NCBI GenBank assembly: GCA_040390065.1
Contig: JAZJZE010000009.1
Location: forward strand, 544,713-608,712
DNA: 64,000 nucleotides
Source: a bacterium
Lineage (GTDB): Archaea > Thermoplasmatota > E2 > JACPAO01 > JAHFTW01
Reading direction: 5' to 3'
Part shown: piece after piece, positions 23,741 through 34,336 of the stretch
How positions within the stretch are numbered: the stretch's first letter is position 1
How the letters are laid out: every line of letters starts with the position of its first letter
The notes under the pieces: model-generated
What the model was told of the DNA's origin: nothing
Database searches by the model: none
What the model saw: only the letters and a program-made list of their open reading frames with translations
Program-made: the position numbers and the translations under genes

Positions 23741-24124
23741 ATCGAAACCAACCAACTTGCGGCCACGTCAACCTCCGACGGCGGCGACGCGCACGAGGTG
23801 GCCGCTTGCTTGAGTTTGGGCGGCCTGGAAAAACAGTGAACCCCATGAAACGGCAGGCGACAGGACATCGGTTTCCCTGGGTTCGGGTGGTGCACTATTT
23901 TCCGCGGCCTCCCACACTCAGCGACGCCCCGCAAGCAAGATGAATCCCAGCCCCCCCGGCGGCCCCCGCGCGCTCGCTACGCATCGCGCACTGGCCTCGC
24001 CCTCGCACGCCCGCGCTGCGCTGCGGGCTGCTCGCCCCGACCGGGGGCCCGCTTCGCCTTTCCTCCATTCCCTCAAGGCGTCGGCGCCGTCGGAGGACGA
24101 CGGGAATGGCTCGGTGGCTTGGAC
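23741..24124 (-). repeat. Dispersed structured repeat family B, copy 1
   Basis: Reverse-complement homolog of 30159-30580; long internal hairpin. Confidence 0.85.
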
Positions 24125-28291: not shown

Positions 28292-29950
28292 TCACTCGCG
28301 GTTGCCCTTGAAGCCCTCGCTCCAGAACACCATGACGAGGATCCATGCGACCAGGATGGCTCCGGCGCCGAAGAGGAATTGGCCGACGCGCGCCGACGGC
28401 GCCGCCGACGAGTAGACGAGGGCGAGGCCGAGGACCAGCGCGGCGGCCATGATCGTGAACCCGGTCTTGAGGATACCGCGGCCTTGCGCTGACTTGATGC
28501 CCTCGAGGCCCGCGACCTCGACGCGCGTCGTGAGTTCGTTGCGCTCGATCTTGCGCAGTACCGTGTTGAGGGTGTGCGGCAACGTCCGGCCGAACTTGAG
28601 AAGCTCTGTCAGCGCCTCCTGCACCATCTCCTTCTGCGCGCCCGGGCTGGAGATGTTCTTCCAGGCGACGTCGGCCACGAACGGGTCGAGGACCTCCACG
28701 AGCTCGAAGTCGGGGTCGAGGGTTCGGCAGATGCCCTCGAACTGGAACAGCGCCCGCGTGATGAGCGCGAAGTCCGGGGGCAGGAGCATGCGGTGGCTGC
28801 GCGCCAGGCCCACGATGAGGTCCATGAGGACCGGGTCGGCCACCGAGACCTGCTCCCGGTCGATGTAGTCCATGATGCGCTCGACGTCGGCGCGCAACCG
28901 CTTGGAATCGACTTCCGCCCGCTGGTCGCAAAGGTCGAGGATGGCTTCGACGGTCCCTTCCACGTGGCCGCCGCCCAACGCCGTGATGAGTTGCAAGATC
29001 GTCTTCGCGCGGCGCTCCGAGACGATGCCGACGGCGCCGAAATCGAGGAAGGCGACGACGTTCCCGGGCAGGATGAGGATGTTGCCCGGCGACGGGTCCG
29101 CGTGGAAGACGCGGTCCACGAAGATCTGCTTCGCCATGGATTCCGTGAGAATGCGCGCCACACTCGGCCCGTCGACGCGCGACAGGGCAAGGGGCCCGGT
29201 GAGCTTCACGCCGTCCATGAACTCCATCACGAGGACCCGCTTGCTGCACAGCTCAGGGACGACTTCCGGGATGCGGACCTTGCTGTTGCCACGACAGTTG
29301 TCCGCAATGCGCTGCGTGTTGCGCATCTCGTAGCGGTAGTCCAGTTCGCGCTCCATCATGAGGCGCAGCTCCTCCAGGTGGTCGGATGGTTGCCAGACCC
29401 GCGAGCCGGCGAAGGTCTTCTCCACGAAGGTGACCAGCCTCCGGAGAATGCGGAAGTCGGCCTCCATCTCCTCCTCGATGTCCGAGTGCTGCACCTTCAC
29501 CGCGACGCGGCGTCCGTCCCGGAGTGTCGCCTCGTGGACTTGCCCGATGGACGCGCTCGCGATGGGAACGGGGTTGAATGCGGCGAAAACCTCGCTCGCG
29601 TCGCGGCCCAACTCGGCGCGGATGATGCGGGCCACCTCGTTTGGCGACGTGGCCGGCGCCTGGTCGTACAGCTTACGGAACTCCTCGACGTACTCCTTCT
29701 CCAGGAGATCGGGGCGCGTGGCCAGCAGTTGGCCGAGCTTGATGAAGGTCGGGCCAAGTTGCTCGAGGAGCTTCCGGGTCCGCACCGGCGCGGGCTCCAG
29801 GTTCTCGGGCTGCGCCTTGCCGCGAAGGACCGTCGACAGGAGTCCCCACGCGTTGTTGCGAATCAGGATGGTGAGGATCTCGTTGAAGCGCGAACGACGG
29901 CGCCGCACGGCGAGGGCTTCCGCGACGGCTTCGGGCACGGTGTGGGCCAT
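28292..29950 (-). CDS. UbiB/ABC1 atypical kinase family protein
   Basis: LGPTFIKLGQLLATRPDL, ASASIGQVH, VAVKVQ, FHADPSPGN and LDFG motifs. Confidence 0.95.
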   Translation of the reverse strand: MAHTVPEAVAEALAVRRRRSRFNEILTILIRNNAWGLLSTVLRGKAQPENLEPAPVRTRKLLEQLGPTFIKLGQLLATRPDLLEKEYVEEFRKLYDQAPATSPNEVARIIRAELGRDASEVFAAFNPVPIASASIGQVHEATLRDGRRVAVKVQHSDIEEEMEADFRILRRLVTFVEKTFAGSRVWQPSDHLEELRLMMERELDYRYEMRNTQRIADNCRGNSKVRIPEVVPELCSKRVLVMEFMDGVKLTGPLALSRVDGPSVARILTESMAKQIFVDRVFHADPSPGNILILPGNVVAFLDFGAVGIVSERRAKTILQLITALGGGHVEGTVEAILDLCDQRAEVDSKRLRADVERIMDYIDREQVSVADPVLMDLIVGLARSHRMLLPPDFALITRALFQFEGICRTLDPDFELVEVLDPFVADVAWKNISSPGAQKEMVQEALTELLKFGRTLPHTLNTVLRKIERNELTTRVEVAGLEGIKSAQGRGILKTGFTIMAAALVLGLALVYSSAAPSARVGQFLFGAGAILVAWILVMVFWSEGFKGNRE

Positions 29951-30158
29951 GGCCTGCGTCGGTTTAAGAAAGAAGGGGGCGGCGCCCGCCCCGACTTCTC
30001 CACAGATTTCGCGGAATCGTCGGTCTGCATTCGGGCGAGCTCTTGCACGTCCTGCACGCACTCCGACTGGGAGCAGATTCCGCCGATTGACGTTCAGGCC
30101 TGCTCCGGTTCGAACCACCGAACGCACAGAACATACCGAACCGCCGGGGAACCTACGT

Positions 30159-30580
30159 GTCCAAGCCAACGAGCCATTCCCGTCGTCCTCCGACGGCGGC
30201 GACGTCGTGAAGGAATGGCAGGAGACTGGGGCGACGCCCGGTCAACCGACGCAACGGACGCAACCGACACCGACGAGCCCCCGGCCGGGGCGAGCGACTG
30301 CGCCGCGAAGCGCGCAGAGCGAGGGCGTGGCAAGCCGCGAGGCGAAGCCGCGGCGAGGGCCGCCGGGGGCCTGGGATTCATCTTGCTTGCAGGGCGTCGC
30401 TGAGTGTGGGAGGCCTCGGAAAACAGTGAACCACCCGAAACCAGGGAAACCCATGTCGTGTCTCCTGCCCTTTCATGTGGTTCACTGTTTTTCCAGGCTG
30501 CCCACACCCCACTATGCGGCCACCTCGTGCAAGTCGCCGGCGCCGCAGGATGATGTGGCCGGGAGGTGGTTGGTTTCGAC
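30159..30580 (+). repeat. Dispersed structured repeat family B, copy 2
   Basis: Ends GTCCAAGCCAAC ... GTTGGTTTCGAC (imperfect 12-bp inverted repeat); long hairpin at ~30404-30507; homolog of 23741-24124. Confidence 0.85.
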
Positions 30581-30709
30581 CGACGGCTTCGGCGTCCCAA
30601 CGCCCAGCCGGCCGAGGCTCCCCCTCCACCCGAAGCAAGTCTTATCCAACCGGCTGCAAAGGAAGCACAGGAAGCGTGCAGCCGGGGCCGCACCCGTAGC
30701 GAGCTTTCC

Positions 30710-30726
30710 GGAAAATGCCCTTAATC
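30710..30726 (+). promoter_or_regulatory. Putative archaeal BRE/TATA promoter for the large ncRNA
   Basis: Purine run GGAAAA then CCTTAATC about 20-25 bp upstream of the structured region; same TTAA-core boxes precede pcn, aspS and dedA. Confidence 0.6.
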
Positions 30727-30743
30727 CCCCGCCCATTCAGGGT

Positions 30744-31556
30744 GTTTGCCCGCGCAAGCGGGTAACGGTCATCGCGGTGGGAGGGGCTGGAAACGGCCTC
30801 CCCGACGCCCGAGGGTTCGGAGCAATCCGGATCCGCGGGCGCGCCGGGACCGGCGGGGTGCACTTCGGTGTTCTCCCCCGTCGGCGACGGCACTCGGCGT
30901 CCCGCAAGGGACGTCGCGGCACTGCGATGGATGGGCCGCCTTCGGGTGGTCCTTCGCCGTGCACCAACCGCACCATCGTCCTCCCTCGTGGAAGGCGGTG
31001 ATGGGATCCAGTCGGGAAACCGGCCGGAGAACGACGCGCTTTGCAAGAAGCGTGATGCGGTGGATCGTCTGGCATTCGGGTCAGGCTGTTCTTCTGGCCG
31101 CAAGGTCGGGCCCCGCGGACTTGTTCCGTGGACGCCTCGGGTCATCATCCGGGAAGATGCATGGGACTCTGCATCCGCCCCACACCAAACCAGGCATGCG
31201 TCTGAAGAGTTGCAGGCTTTCGGCAACGACGCGCTGCACGGCAAACCGCAAGGCAAGCCGACGGCATGACCTGATCCAAACGGGATTGCCCTTCGGGGCA
31301 AGCGGCCCGCCACTTCGGAAACGAAGAAGGGCCTAGGCGACCGAGTACGGTCCCGGAATGGATGCCGCCGACCCTCCGGGGAAGGCGACCGCGCATCGCA
31401 AGGTTCGCGGGGAACGGCAACCCGCAAGGGTGGCCGTGGCGTGGCGCCGCAAGGCGTCGGAACTGGCTTCGGCCAGACTGGCAGGGGGTCCGGGCAAGGT
31501 CAAGCCCGATCCGGGAAACCGCAAGGCGACCCGGGTCTCCGCTTGCGTGGGCAACC
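30744..31556 (+). ncRNA. Candidate large (~810 nt) highly structured non-coding RNA, family unknown
   Basis: 5' 30746-30761 pairs with 3' 31539-31554; 10 GCAA, 3 GAAA and 4 UUCG tetraloop hairpins on the + strand; many G-U pairs; no credible ORF. Confidence 0.85.
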
Positions 31557-31566
31557 TCTTCTCTCT
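31557..31566 (+). terminator. Pyrimidine tract, putative archaeal terminator
   Basis: TCTTCTCTCT directly after the closing stem, convergent with the stop codon at 31565-31567. Confidence 0.5.
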
Positions 31567-32758
31567 AGGCCGCGGCCATTCGGTAGACCGCGCCGCCGTG
31601 GTCGACGACGTAGATGTCGCGCTGGGCGTCTTCGCCGAACGAGCTGACCTGCAGAGCCGTTTCGAGCACGACGCGCGGCGTCCAGGTCGTGCCGGCTTTC
31701 GTCAAGGCCCAGATTGTTCCCGAGCAGTAGTCGGCGTACAGATACGCGCCGGCGAGGGCCGGCACCGTCGAACCACGGTACACGTACCCGCCCGTGATAG
31801 AGCAGCGCCCGCCGTCGTGACTGTACTCGGCGACCGGCAGGACCGCGCTCGACGCGTCGACGTCGTCGCGGAATGGATGCGCGCCCTCGAATGCGTTCCA
31901 GCCGTAGTTGGTGCCGCCGCGGCCGGGCTGTTCCAGGTCGACTTCCTCCCATTGGTTCTGGCCGACGTCGCCAATCCACAAGTCGCCGGTCTGCGCGTCG
32001 AAGCTGAAGCGCCAAGGATTGCGCATGCCGTAATCCCAGATCTCACCGCGGCCCCCGCCGTTGGCAAACGGATTGTCGCTGGGGATACGCGGCACGGTTC
32101 CCGCATGGGCGTCGCCCGGTGGCCCGATGTCAATGCGCAGGATTTTTCCCAGAAGCGTGTCGAGGTCCTGGCCGTTGCCTTGCGGGTCGCCCCCGGATCC
32201 GCCGTCGCCCATGCCGACGTAGAGCATGCCGTCCGGTCCAAAGGCGACCATGCCGCCGTTGTGGTTGGCGTACGGCTGCGCGATGGACAGGAGTGTGCGC
32301 GTCTTCACGGGGCCGACCGTCCCGCCAGCGAGCCCCCCGACCATCTGGTACTCGACCACCTGAGTGTCGCCGCGCAAGTCGGTGTAGTCCACGACGAAGC
32401 GAGCATCGCCGGTTGCGAAACGTGGATGGAAGGCAAGACCCAGCAGACCCTGCTCGGCGCCGCCGCTCACTTGTCCCCGCAAGTCCAGGAAGTGCTGCGT
32501 CGCGCCGGGCGTGGCACGCGGCATCGAGACGACGAGGCCGTCCTGCTGGACGATGTAGAGCGTCCCGGACCCGGGGGCTTCCGTGACGAAGAGGGGCTGC
32601 GAGAGTCCGTCGATGATTTGGACGAGCTTCATGACGGGGCCGCCGCCTGGGAGGGACGACGTGGGAGTGGACGAGGACGCCGCGCCGCCGCTCGACCCGT
32701 ACGGGCCGCCGTTGCATCCCGCGAGGGCGACCGCTGCCAGGACGACGAGGACGCGCAC
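31565..32758 (-). CDS. PQQ-dependent sugar dehydrogenase (GSDH family) lipoprotein
   Basis: Lipobox LAGC; EQGLLGLAFHP, NHNGG.V.FGPDG.LY, GMRNPWRFSFD and NYGW motifs. Confidence 0.93.
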   Translation of the reverse strand: MRVLVVLAAVALAGCNGGPYGSSGGAASSSTPTSSLPGGGPVMKLVQIIDGLSQPLFVTEAPGSGTLYIVQQDGLVVSMPRATPGATQHFLDLRGQVSGGAEQGLLGLAFHPRFATGDARFVVDYTDLRGDTQVVEYQMVGGLAGGTVGPVKTRTLLSIAQPYANHNGGMVAFGPDGMLYVGMGDGGSGGDPQGNGQDLDTLLGKILRIDIGPPGDAHAGTVPRIPSDNPFANGGGRGEIWDYGMRNPWRFSFDAQTGDLWIGDVGQNQWEEVDLEQPGRGGTNYGWNAFEGAHPFRDDVDASSAVLPVAEYSHDGGRCSITGGYVYRGSTVPALAGAYLYADYCSGTIWALTKAGTTWTPRVVLETALQVSSFGEDAQRDIYVVDHGGAVYRMAAA

Positions 32759-32794
32759 GACGGCGCAGCGATCGACGCGGGTTTGGCCCTTGCG

Positions 32795-33017
32795 GCTCGG
32801 CCCCACAGCCCTACGAAATCGTCACGGTGCCATGCATTCCCGCATCGAAGTGCCCGGTGATGTTGCACGCACGAGGGGGGCTGCCGCTGCGGCGTCCGCC
32901 GCAGCTCCGCCCCCTTCGAACCCCCCGCGTGGGGCCTCGCCGCGCTCGGCCCCACAGCCCTACGAAATCGTCACGGTGCCGTGCATGCCCGCATCGAAGT
33001 GCCCGGTGATGTTGCAC
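32795..33017. repeat. 74-bp direct duplication of the coxB 3' end flanking a 75-bp palindromic spacer
   Basis: 32795-32868 matches 32944-33017 with 2 mismatches. Confidence 0.92.
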
Positions 33018-34336
33018 CACATCTCCCAGTTGCCCTTCATGTCCGCCGTGGGCACGAAGAGGAATGAGCCGGTCGAGCCGCCCGCAATCGTCGCCGAGCT
33101 GGCAAGCACGTTGCCGCCGTGGGTGCCGATGTACAGGTTGTGCGGAATCGTGTGCACGTCCTTCAGGGTCACGAGGTACGTCTTGCCGACCGTGAAGTCA
33201 ACGTGGTCCGGGATGAGACGGAACTCGCCCAGGCGGACCTCGGTGAGTTCCGCGTGGACGATGTTGAACGTGACGTGCGCCACATGGCCCGCGGACTGGA
33301 CGCCTAGGACGGGCGAGCCCGATGGTGGAACGTCGACCGCGAAGAACGCTTGGCCACCTGCAGGCACGCTGTTTGGACCGGCACCTGCCAGAGTAGCCGA
33401 CGGGAACGGCTGGTCGTTCCACGTGATGTTGGCCGGCTGGGCCGTCGGGTTCGTCACGTTCAGGATGATGCGCGCGCCACTCACCACCGTCTGGTCGCCC
33501 GTCAAGGAAAGGCCGGTAGCCGTGATCGTGGCGTCGTAGTCCATGACGACGGAGGCGGCGGGCTCCATGGCCTGCAGCTGGTGGTGCAGAAGCCACATGT
33601 CGTACATGGGACGCGGCACCGACTTGATGGCGGCGTGCATGTAGGCGTGGCCCGGATTGAGGCACATCTTGTTGCACTGCACCAGGTAGTCGCCCTCGGG
33701 GAGGCTTACCGTTTGATCGTTGTACTTGTTCGCCCCAAGCGGGTTGGCGTCGACGAACATGACGTAGGCGCGGTTGGCGTCCAGCACTTGCCAGGCGTGG
33801 ATGACGTCTGCCGACGTGATGTTGAATCGGATGGGCTCGTCCCGCGGCACCCAGAACGTGTTGGCCGCAGACACCGGGCCGCCCGTGAGGTCGGCCGGGG
33901 ATTCGACGCGCACGTTGTGGCCGTAGTCCGCCTCCCAGTTCCATTGGCTGGCCGTGATGCGGATCTCGATGTGCACGTCCTTCGGGTCGATGCCGTGGTC
34001 GAGCTGGACGAGGCCGCCATAGGCCGCGTAGCCGATCCACAGCACCATGATGAGAGGGATGACGACCCAGGTGATCTCTGCATTCAAGTTGTGGCGCTCC
34101 TTCTCATGCGTCGCGCGGCCGTGGCCCGACCCTTCGCGGAACCGCACGATGACGACGACGAGCCACACGAAGACGATGGTGAAGACGATCGTGCCAAGCA
34201 GCGCGATGGTGTTGTACAGGCCCTCGACGAGCTGGCCGCGCGAGGTCAAGGCATGGGGCATGCCGAAGCCGGCCGACGCCGGCGCCGCCAGGAAGGCCAC
34301 AAGGAGACTCAGGAGGGCGGGGAAAAGCTTGCGCAT
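32960..34336 (-). CDS. coxB: Heme-copper oxidase subunit II with fused C-terminal cupredoxin domain(s)
   Basis: Two TM segments, QWNW, SADVIH, CuA-like CNKMCLNPGHAYM; C-terminal PHNL...CNITGHFDAGM type-1 copper motif. Confidence 0.9.
   Translation of the reverse strand: MRKLFPALLSLLVAFLAAPASAGFGMPHALTSRGQLVEGLYNTIALLGTIVFTIVFVWLVVVIVRFREGSGHGRATHEKERHNLNAEITWVVIPLIMVLWIGYAAYGGLVQLDHGIDPKDVHIEIRITASQWNWEADYGHNVRVESPADLTGGPVSAANTFWVPRDEPIRFNITSADVIHAWQVLDANRAYVMFVDANPLGANKYNDQTVSLPEGDYLVQCNKMCLNPGHAYMHAAIKSVPRPMYDMWLLHHQLQAMEPAASVVMDYDATITATGLSLTGDQTVVSGARIILNVTNPTAQPANITWNDQPFPSATLAGAGPNSVPAGGQAFFAVDVPPSGSPVLGVQSAGHVAHVTFNIVHAELTEVRLGEFRLIPDHVDFTVGKTYLVTLKDVHTIPHNLYIGTHGGNVLASSATIAGGSTGSFLFVPTADMKGNWEMWCNITGHFDAGMHGTVTIS

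Follow-up and report, generated by a model that had tools for sequence, protein, structure and literature searches.

This study concerns a 64,000-nt stretch of archaeal DNA (hereafter the window; contig JAZJZE010000009.1 of assembly GCA_040390065.1, positions 544,713 to 608,712 of the forward strand) and, within it, the region between ubiB (ABC1 kinase domain; 28292-30169, minus strand) and a glucose/sorbosone-dehydrogenase gene (GSDH; 31565-32806, minus strand). An earlier note, made from the letters of the window, had described the interval between ubiB and a pyrroloquinoline quinone dehydrogenase as about 0.8 kb with no credible coding sequence, packed with hairpins, and had interpreted it as a large structured RNA. 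The two flanking genes are indeed ubiB and GSDH, and the region is devoid of a credible coding sequence, but the non-coding gap amounts to ~1.4 kb, as ubiB ends at 30169. Our analysis indicates, with a probability of roughly 85%, that positions 30744-31556 of the plus strand encode a large non-coding RNA (ncRNA) that is highly structured and belongs to no described family. The GSDH gene is convergent with it. In the following, G000 denotes the genome of the window (G+C content 66.8%) and other G numbers denote genomes of its relatives.

Tetraloop-capped hairpins and strand of the RNA

All 17 tetraloops listed by the earlier note (10 GCAA, 3 GAAA and 4 UUCG) were found at the coordinates given there. 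They are carried by ungapped stems of 2-9 bp, which reach at least 3 bp in 15 and at least 4 bp in 13 of the 17 cases. To compare the locus with the rest of the genome, hairpins were counted wherever a GNRA or UNCG loop sits on a stem of 4 or more ungapped bp. By this measure region 30744-31556 contains 15 capped hairpins on the plus strand and none on the minus strand. The genome background, calculated from 6534 non-overlapping segments of 813 nt on both strands, is 0.90 on average (standard deviation 0.97) with a maximum of 10. This genome-wide maximum, together with one of two segments scoring 7, overlaps the ncRNA locus, and the other segment scoring 7 is the RNase P RNA locus.

Folding energies of the two strands differ in the same direction. 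The plus strand has a minimum free energy (MFE) of -452.6 kcal/mol and lies far below its shuffles (z = -6.9; none of 20 shuffles as good), the minus strand less so (-385.7 kcal/mol, z = -2.8). Each of 14 full-length homologues from related genomes (see below) folds better than its dinucleotide shuffles, with z-scores from -3.9 to -15.7 (12 shuffles each). The RNA was assigned to the plus strand because GNRA- or UNCG-capped hairpins summed over the 14 homologues number 123 on this strand versus 22 on the opposite one; the plus strand is richer in every homologue. The G-U pairs, which had been proposed to be strand-specific, are so in the terminal helix P1, where they work on the plus strand only.

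Secondary structure and compensatory changes

Features of the RNA and of its surroundings are collected in Table 1. In its architecture, P1 joins both ends of the molecule, P2 closes a multibranch domain at the 5' side, Pc a central domain, and Pk together with the predicted pairing of the AUCCGCCCC motif to a G-rich strand a 3' domain. This framework is surrounded by ~15 hairpins that carry GNRA or UUCG loops.

Table 1. Positions in the window of the RNA gene, its structural elements and associated sequences (the last row lies outside the window)
Feature	Position	Strand	Sequence or description	Support
Upstream inverted repeat	30652..30683	.	GGCTGCA-N18-TGCAGCC in conserved block 30632-30704; outside the RNA	
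Promoter	30705..30727	+	TTTCCGGAAAA (purine-rich, resembling the transcription factor B recognition element, BRE), then TGCCCTTAATC (TATA-like)	aligned in 14 homologues
ncRNA	30744..31556	+	~810 nt; predicted start ~30742-30748, predicted end ~31554-31566	fold z-score, covariation, strand-specific tetraloops, 15 clear homologues
P1, 5' strand	30746..30761	+	UUGCCCGCGCAAGCGG; alone can form CCCGC-GCAA-GCGGG hairpin	duplex of -34 kcal/mol with 31539-31554
P1-P2 junction	30764..30770	+	AACGGUC	A61 C62 G63 G64 C66 invariant, T65 nearly so (14 sequences)
P2, 5' strand	30770..30779	+	CAUCGCGGUG; closes 5' multibranch domain	MFE structure, helix 2
P3 hairpin, GAAA loop	30780..30803	+		helix 3: both-side changes in 5/10 pairs
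P2, 3' strand	30920..30929	+	CACUGCGAUG	
Pc, 5' strand	30957..30963	+	CCGUGCA; closes central domain	helix 6: 7 pairs, 97% paired
Conserved hairpin	31093..31109	+	UCUGGCC-GCAA-GGUCGG	helix 11, 96% paired; by eye recognisable in most homologues
Conserved hairpin	31136..31156	+	CUCGGGUCAUCAUCCGGGAAG, then purine-rich linker	helix 14, 97% paired, 2 double-change pairs; aligned in 11 homologues
Pc, 3' strand	31158..31164	+	UGCAUGG	
Pk, 5' strand	31165..31172	+	GACUCUGC; long-range, closes 3' domain	helix 15: 8 pairs, 92.5% paired
Core motif	31173..31181	+	AUCCGCCCC	exact in 10 of 14 homologues
3' core	31485..31506	+	G-rich strand 31485-31493; Pk 3' strand GCAAGGUC 31494-31501; conserved AAGCC 31502-31506	
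P1, 3' strand	31539..31554	+	CCGCUUGCGUGGGCAA	
T-rich tract	31557..31566	+	pyrimidine/T-rich CUCUUCUCUC, likely termination region; abuts GSDH stop codon at 31565	
Paralogous genes with the same promoter motif	C5:68874(+), C9:430137(+), C9:349181(-), C17:5030(-) of G000		outside the window	

Both long-range helices seen by the earlier note are present and kept in relatives. The first of them, P1, is a duplex of 16 bp in the window and, over the family, a GC-rich helix of 14-16 bp joining 5' and 3' ends. Its partner strand was found in 14/14 full-length homologues, ~415-1000 nt downstream, with duplex energies from -25 to -35 kcal/mol and in one case with a 3-nt bulge. In the alignment of five sequences (see below), P1 (helix 1) comprises 14 pairs, of which 7 are invariant and 5 show one-side changes (G-C to G-U), with 97% of cells paired. 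Each P1 strand is itself near-palindromic and able to form a GCAA- or UUGC-capped hairpin, a feature kept in 14/14 sequences. Since each strand is self-complementary, P1 could form intramolecularly or between molecules, or could switch between these states.

The second helix, P2, consists of 10 bp. Its partners in relatives differ by compensatory changes, as in CAUCGUGG/CCACGAUG, CAUCGGG/CCCGAUG and GCCGUGGCG/CGCCACGGC. It is well supported in 9/14 homologues, and in G019, G021, G008, G003 and G001 the best duplex is weak or is not the partner chosen by eye. In the adjacent P3, most homologues retain the CGGAAACGG loop region. Complementary strands equivalent to Pc were found at corresponding places in 13/14 homologues, after picking the strands by eye and finding their positions with a script, and their sequences differ among species (CCGUGCA/UGCAUGG, CCGUGAC/GUCACGG, GCUGCAGUC/GAUUGCAGC, UCGCUGACGC/GCGCAGCGA). 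In distant homologues, P2 and Pc strands were picked partly by eye and constitute weaker evidence.

Within the 3' domain, CCGCCCC of the core motif (31175-31181) is predicted to pair with GGGG-UC-CGG (31485-31493). This helix (helix 17) has 7 pairs, 6 of them invariant; it is conserved in sequence, and the pairing is not proven by covariation. Downstream of it, G000, G004, G012, G003, G011 and G001 retain GUCAAGCC or CCAAGCC. The 7-nt loop of the hairpin at 31136-31156 is possibly T-loop-like. K-turns or box C/D-like GAUG/CUGA pairs, looked for by eye, are not conserved.

Both Pc strands are followed by similar C-rich motifs, AACCGCACC and AUCCGCCCC respectively (30957-30975 and 31158-31181; also in the G018 and G021 homologues), and in G018 the two copies are nearly identical. 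Such an arrangement hints at internal pseudo-symmetry or at an ancient duplication.

Compensatory changes were counted in RNAalifold consensus structures of MAFFT alignments, one of three sequences (G000, G004, G012) and one of five (G003 and G011 added). Two controls were used: 3' partners were shuffled among sequences (500 times), or partners were slid by 1-3 columns. The three-sequence alignment yields 211 consensus pairs with 89.5% of cells paired. Among these pairs 66 are changed on both sides, compared to 27.1±4.0 after shuffling (0/500 reach 66) and 9-17 after sliding. With five sequences there are 198 consensus pairs (84.2% of cells paired), 85 of which are changed on both sides, compared to 43.7±4.2 in shuffled (0/500) and 18-30 in slid controls. 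In the latter alignment both-side changes occur in most hairpins as well as in the long-range helices P2 (2/10 pairs), Pc (2/7) and Pk (3/8). Pairs are thus maintained by compensatory substitutions above both controls, in structures drawn from the same alignments, and what the homologues keep is base pairing and not a reading frame. Between species, whole hairpins are inserted, deleted or replaced, while junction nucleotides and long-range helices are kept; such turnover of hairpins at the periphery is typical of large RNAs.

Promoter, distribution and genomic setting

The BRE/TATA-like GGAAAA...CCTTAATC that had been noticed upstream of the RNA is present and conserved in 14 homologues. In their alignment, promoter columns T2, T3, C4, C5, G7, A8, A9, A10 and A11 are invariant or nearly so, and TTTCCnGAAAA followed by a TATA-like box (CTTAAT, CTATAC, CTAAAC, TTATC) was found in 14/14 full-length sequences. 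The motif is situated ~20-25 nt 5' of the helix strand CCGCGCAAGCGG and the invariant ACGGUC, a spacing that matches the usual archaeal distance from TATA box to transcription start. The predicted downstream TCTTCTCTCT is likewise present. Archaeal transcription terminates at oligo-T, and in most homologues the 3' helix is followed by a T-rich tract, e.g. TTTTTTTATTTT in G023, TTTTTT in G035 and TTTT in G004. With this layout of BRE/TATA promoter and oligo-T termination, the ncRNA appears, as far as its sequence tells, to be its own transcription unit, equipped with the promoter and terminator expected of an ncRNA gene.

Similarity to the nearest relative (G004) begins at ~30632, upstream of the promoter. 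Between G000 and G004, conservation of block 30632-30704 exceeds that of the flanking genes, and a 1-nt indel relative to G004 argues that the block is non-coding. The inverted repeat within this block is nearly identical in G004, and its GGAAGCnTGCAG part recurs in G008, G012 and G033; the repeat is a candidate binding site of a transcription regulator. In a motif search of the genome, the GGAAGCnTGCAG element, the core motif and P1 had only chance occurrences elsewhere.

The promoter motif of the RNA (TAGCGA..TTTCCnGAAAAT..TAT) is also located upstream of four paralogous genes in G000. Each of these is preceded by a conserved leader of ~150 nt, and their N-terminus is signal-peptide-like by eye. 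One of the four was translated, and its 175-aa product matched no Pfam family. Their common motif suggests either a shared strong promoter or common regulation.

We searched for homologs using BLASTN and three covariance models: R1, built from the promoter and first ~65 nt of 4 sequences; R2, which models the promoter and 5' end from 14 sequences; and R3, covering the conserved core. In BLASTN the region is single in its own genome and has matches in three congeners. R1 and R2 gave clear matches in 14/38 genomes of the order, which fall into two families, and a doubtful match in a third family. R3 added one congener whose contig stops inside the gene. In total, clear homologues are thus carried by 15 of 38 genomes of a single archaeal order. 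Outside the order, a sample of 113 genomes of the class yielded no match with R2 or R3, and a sample of 150 genomes of the phylum none with R2. Full-length homologues measure ~436-1016 nt. Any two of them are 42-57% identical, apart from two closely related pairs (69% and 81%).

Several further candidates were rejected. Three R1 matches outside the order (E 0.002-0.009) were confirmed neither by R2 nor by R3 and were judged to be chance, as was the R1 match in G006 (E 0.004), which was dropped by R2 and whose syntenic site is devoid of the RNA. A second match in G004 (G004:C6, E 0.0096), also judged to be chance, covers positions 23-58 only. A scan of a large genome collection with the exact pattern of the 5' motif retrieved 27 stretches, of which 3 are real and correspond to the three known relatives; the same scan of a metagenome collection retrieved 3 stretches, all of them chance occurrences with no extended similarity.

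A special case is G036 (family f2, C3 ~1564-2130), where the promoter motif is accompanied by a hairpin-rich stretch of ~560 nt with GNRA loops and a CCGCCCCACAGACC motif. This stretch is without a clear terminal helix and has different neighbours, and was counted as doubtful only. It represents a highly diverged relative or else a different RNA with the same promoter.

Further, gene neighbourhoods were compared for 11 relatives, a set that excludes the two members of family f3. In 10/11 of them the RNA gene points at the 3' end of the gene for cytochrome oxidase subunit II (COX2), and in the eleventh (G015) the contig stops inside GSDH, before COX2. COX1 and COX3 lie beyond COX2; an aspartyl-type tRNA synthetase gene and ubiB are located on the other side of the RNA. 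In 4 genomes (G000 included) GSDH separates the RNA from COX2; another 6 have it upstream in divergent orientation, and 2 lack it. That GSDH can be on either side (31565-34336 in the window, and relatives) while orientation of the RNA towards COX2 is constant points to translocation of either GSDH or the RNA gene and not to inversion. In five congeners that gave no model match, GSDH or the synthetase gene stands directly beside COX2 at the same site, and this syntenic site contains no promoter motif, core motif or excess of tetraloops. The gene is old in the order and, in the main family, has been passed on at a single site beside the heme-copper oxidase genes; it has repeatedly been lost. Its absence from the syntenic site in five congeners means that the RNA is dispensable.

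Contigs of relatives also occur in public RNA libraries. A few 31-mers of the stretch occur in nine libraries from five studies, and contigs from four of the libraries (four studies; soil and freshwater metagenomes) cover 30752-31467 in pieces. Their likeness to the stretch ranges from 85% to over 99%; examples are contigs of 388 nt on 30779-31166, 476 nt on 30941-31372 and 186 nt on 30759-30944. Several carry other sequence in place of variable hairpins. RNA libraries therefore contain relatives of the RNA, both close and more distant ones. Region 30400-30751 is uncovered and 31544-31700 almost so. This lack of coverage is no evidence, and flanks of the relatives are in any event too diverged for alignment at 85%.

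Farther upstream, 30404-30560 is occupied by an unrelated dispersed repeat of ~157 nt that forms a long hairpin with 17-bp arms and a loop of ~40 nt. At least 10 further copies with 68-85% identity are present in the same genome, one of them at ~23761-23917. The repeat resembles miniature inverted-repeat transposable elements (MITEs). It accounts for a spurious match to the microRNA model mir-671 at 30413-30498, the best match of the permissive Rfam scan mentioned below.

Nature of the RNA and comparison with known systems

That the locus encodes a structured ncRNA is thus supported by tetraloop density, folding energy, covariation and conserved promoter. Several observations weigh against this conclusion or reduce its strength. 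MFE prefers the plus strand in only 9/14 homologues. Covariation structures and alignments are not independent and comprise 3 and 5 related sequences, which inflates the contrast with the controls. An alignment of 12 sequences was too poor to fold (MAFFT, only 27-29 consensus pairs) and was dropped; family-wide occurrence of Pc and Pk consequently rests in part on strands chosen by eye. Sequence conservation of P1 and of the AUCCGCCCC helix leaves little room for covariation in them. Contigs from the RNA libraries are assembled, derive from relatives, carry no information on strand, ends or size and are no proof of transcription; DNA may be present in such libraries. Finally, the neighbourhood revealed no conserved protein gene whose role relates to RNA.

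Among other explanations, the RNA might be a cis-antisense regulator of the convergent GSDH or COX2, acting through collision of transcription or pairing of 3' ends, with structure of secondary importance. The predicted end of the RNA is ~9 nt from the GSDH stop codon, and the convergent arrangement with GSDH or COX2 recurs in 10/11 relatives compared. However, the neighbouring coding region is not overlapped, and the antisense partner would vary with the changing position of GSDH described above (downstream in 4 genomes, upstream in 6, absent in 2). Moreover, the possible family-f2 variant resides in another gene context, and an antisense role needs no long-range helices, junction motifs or covariation. 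We regard such a role as improbable.

The ends of the ncRNA are inverted repeats with conserved sequence, and this invites its interpretation as a non-autonomous, MITE-like mobile element whose 16-nt terminal inverted repeats serve as transposase sites. Patchy presence among congeners and variable position relative to GSDH would fit as well. Yet the element is single-copy here and has one clear match in each of the 14 other carrier genomes, its locus is the same across genera, and no direct repeats flank its ends. The promoter lies outside the repeats, and nevertheless its presence or absence goes along with that of the remaining element. In addition, there is covariation in the interior helices, the tetraloops are specific to one strand, and the G-U pairs of the terminal helix become A-C mismatches on the other strand. 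A mobile element is thus a very improbable explanation.

Also very improbable is that the RNA belongs to a known family and has diverged strongly or gathered many insertions; candidates would be RNase P RNA, signal recognition particle (SRP) RNA, a group II intron lacking its open reading frame (ORF), OLE, GOLLD, ROOL and similar RNAs. Multi-domain architecture, a terminal helix and many GNRA loops are common to such RNAs and ours, and a truncated RNase P model gives a weak 14-bit match at 31425-31474. Against this stand the results of Rfam searches. A scan with all 4227 families found no match at gathering score in the window except one distant tRNA. A permissive scan of 30300-31800 (E<=10) retrieved six chance-level matches, with no family at E<0.07, and the 14 loci of relatives gave nothing at E<=0.1 except a tRNA. 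The archaeal RNase P model (RF00373) has no match in 30300-31800 even at E<=10, and the archaeal SRP RNA model (RF01857) none in the region. Because canonical archaeal copies of both RNAs are located elsewhere in the genome (RNase P RNA at G000:C9:468941-469240, 124.5 bits with RF00373; SRP RNA on contig C2, 141.3 bits), the organism is an archaeon and the candidate is neither of them. As to group II introns, all-Rfam scans detected no intron family, what borders the region is a promoter and a T-tract instead of exons, and neither a reverse-transcriptase ORF nor another intron-encoded protein was found. The earlier note had seen no hallmark of RNase P, SRP or group II introns, which these searches bear out. 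OLE, GOLLD, ROOL, raiA and HEARO, which we take to be among the Rfam families under these names, and the other Rfam 15 families likewise gave no covariance-model match in the region.

A protein-coding gene or decayed pseudogene, for which one could cite two long ORFs (196 aa on the plus and 261 aa on the minus strand) and long stop-free frames in all homologues, is excluded for practical purposes: neither ORF has a Pfam match or a conserved frame, open frames occur in several frames on both strands, as is expected at 67% G+C, collinear tblastx matches between G000 and G004 jump frames with indels of 1, 14, 16 and 19 nt, and beyond G004 tblastx similarity is limited to short patches.

We therefore return to a structured ncRNA, which we rate as a new class; "large ornate RNA of unknown function" is already a familiar descriptive category in bacteria. 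Full-text literature searches on large or structured archaeal ncRNAs returned no description of this RNA. The accessible portions of two 2026 preprints on clustering of prokaryotic intergenic regions contain no description either, and their supplementary cluster tables might list the locus. We know of no large, highly structured class of archaeal RNA besides rRNA, RNase P RNA and SRP RNA.

Our best guess is that the molecule functions by virtue of its fold, as a stable RNA or as a ribonucleoprotein. It would be made as a discrete, abundant and nuclease-resistant molecule, with P1 sealing both ends, and would most likely form the core of a stable RNA or ribonucleoprotein particle whose three-dimensional fold, and not base-pairing to an mRNA, confers its action. 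Conserved junction residues may constitute the functional site, and GNRA loops may supply tertiary, possibly intermolecular, contacts. Its role would be accessory, not essential. In bacteria, large RNAs with architecture conserved in this manner are ribozymes, ribonucleoprotein machines or self-assembling RNA cages. More tentatively, and as a minority possibility in our judgement, it could be the first archaeal "ornate large RNA", i.e. an abundant RNA of 0.45-1 kb that assembles into a higher-order particle and has its own biochemical role, either catalytic or architectural/membrane-associated and tied to aerobic respiration. Such assembly could use the many GNRA loops and the self-complementary termini, with P1 forming in trans, in a manner comparable to ROOL and GOLLD cages. 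If a catalytic or multimeric nature were true, these phenomena would be extended to archaea. With its compact core, defined promoter, signs of presence in environmental RNA libraries and natural length variants, the new class can be put to direct use: G008, with its 436-nt variant, already supplies a minimal construct, and congeners with and without the gene provide a natural comparison.

Among known systems, bacterial OLE RNA (ornate, large, extremophilic) offers several parallels. OLE is reported to be ~600 nt long and to work as a ribonucleoprotein with biochemistry that is still unclear. Like the archaeal RNA, it is ornate, has conserved nucleotides between many helices, is restricted to a narrow lineage and forms its own transcription unit. 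In contrast to OLE, our RNA is archaeal and not from Bacillota, matches no Rfam model, has no adjacent genes for partner proteins and varies more than two-fold in length.

GOLLD and ROOL were found by cryo-electron microscopy to form RNA-only multimeric complexes, as reported in 10.1101/2024.12.08.627333. These RNAs of bacteria and phages resemble the archaeal one in their size class of 0.5-0.8 kb, many peripheral hairpins, patchy distribution and abundant GNRA loops that could mediate intermolecular contacts. While GOLLD and ROOL reside in prophages or next to tRNAs, the archaeal RNA occupies a fixed chromosomal site beside respiratory genes, and it has no match to their covariance models.

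ORF-less group II introns are similar in length (0.5-1 kb), multi-domain structure and number of tetraloops. They differ from our RNA in that the latter is single-copy and syntenic, is bordered by a promoter and a T-tract, and matches no intron model. As for archaeal RNase P RNA, the ncRNA is twice as long, is absent from many relatives and does not score with RF00373. Yet the two share a terminal helix, domains closed by long-range helices, a conserved core of junctions and a variable periphery, and the RNase P locus is the only other site of the genome that is dense in GNRA/UNCG hairpins.

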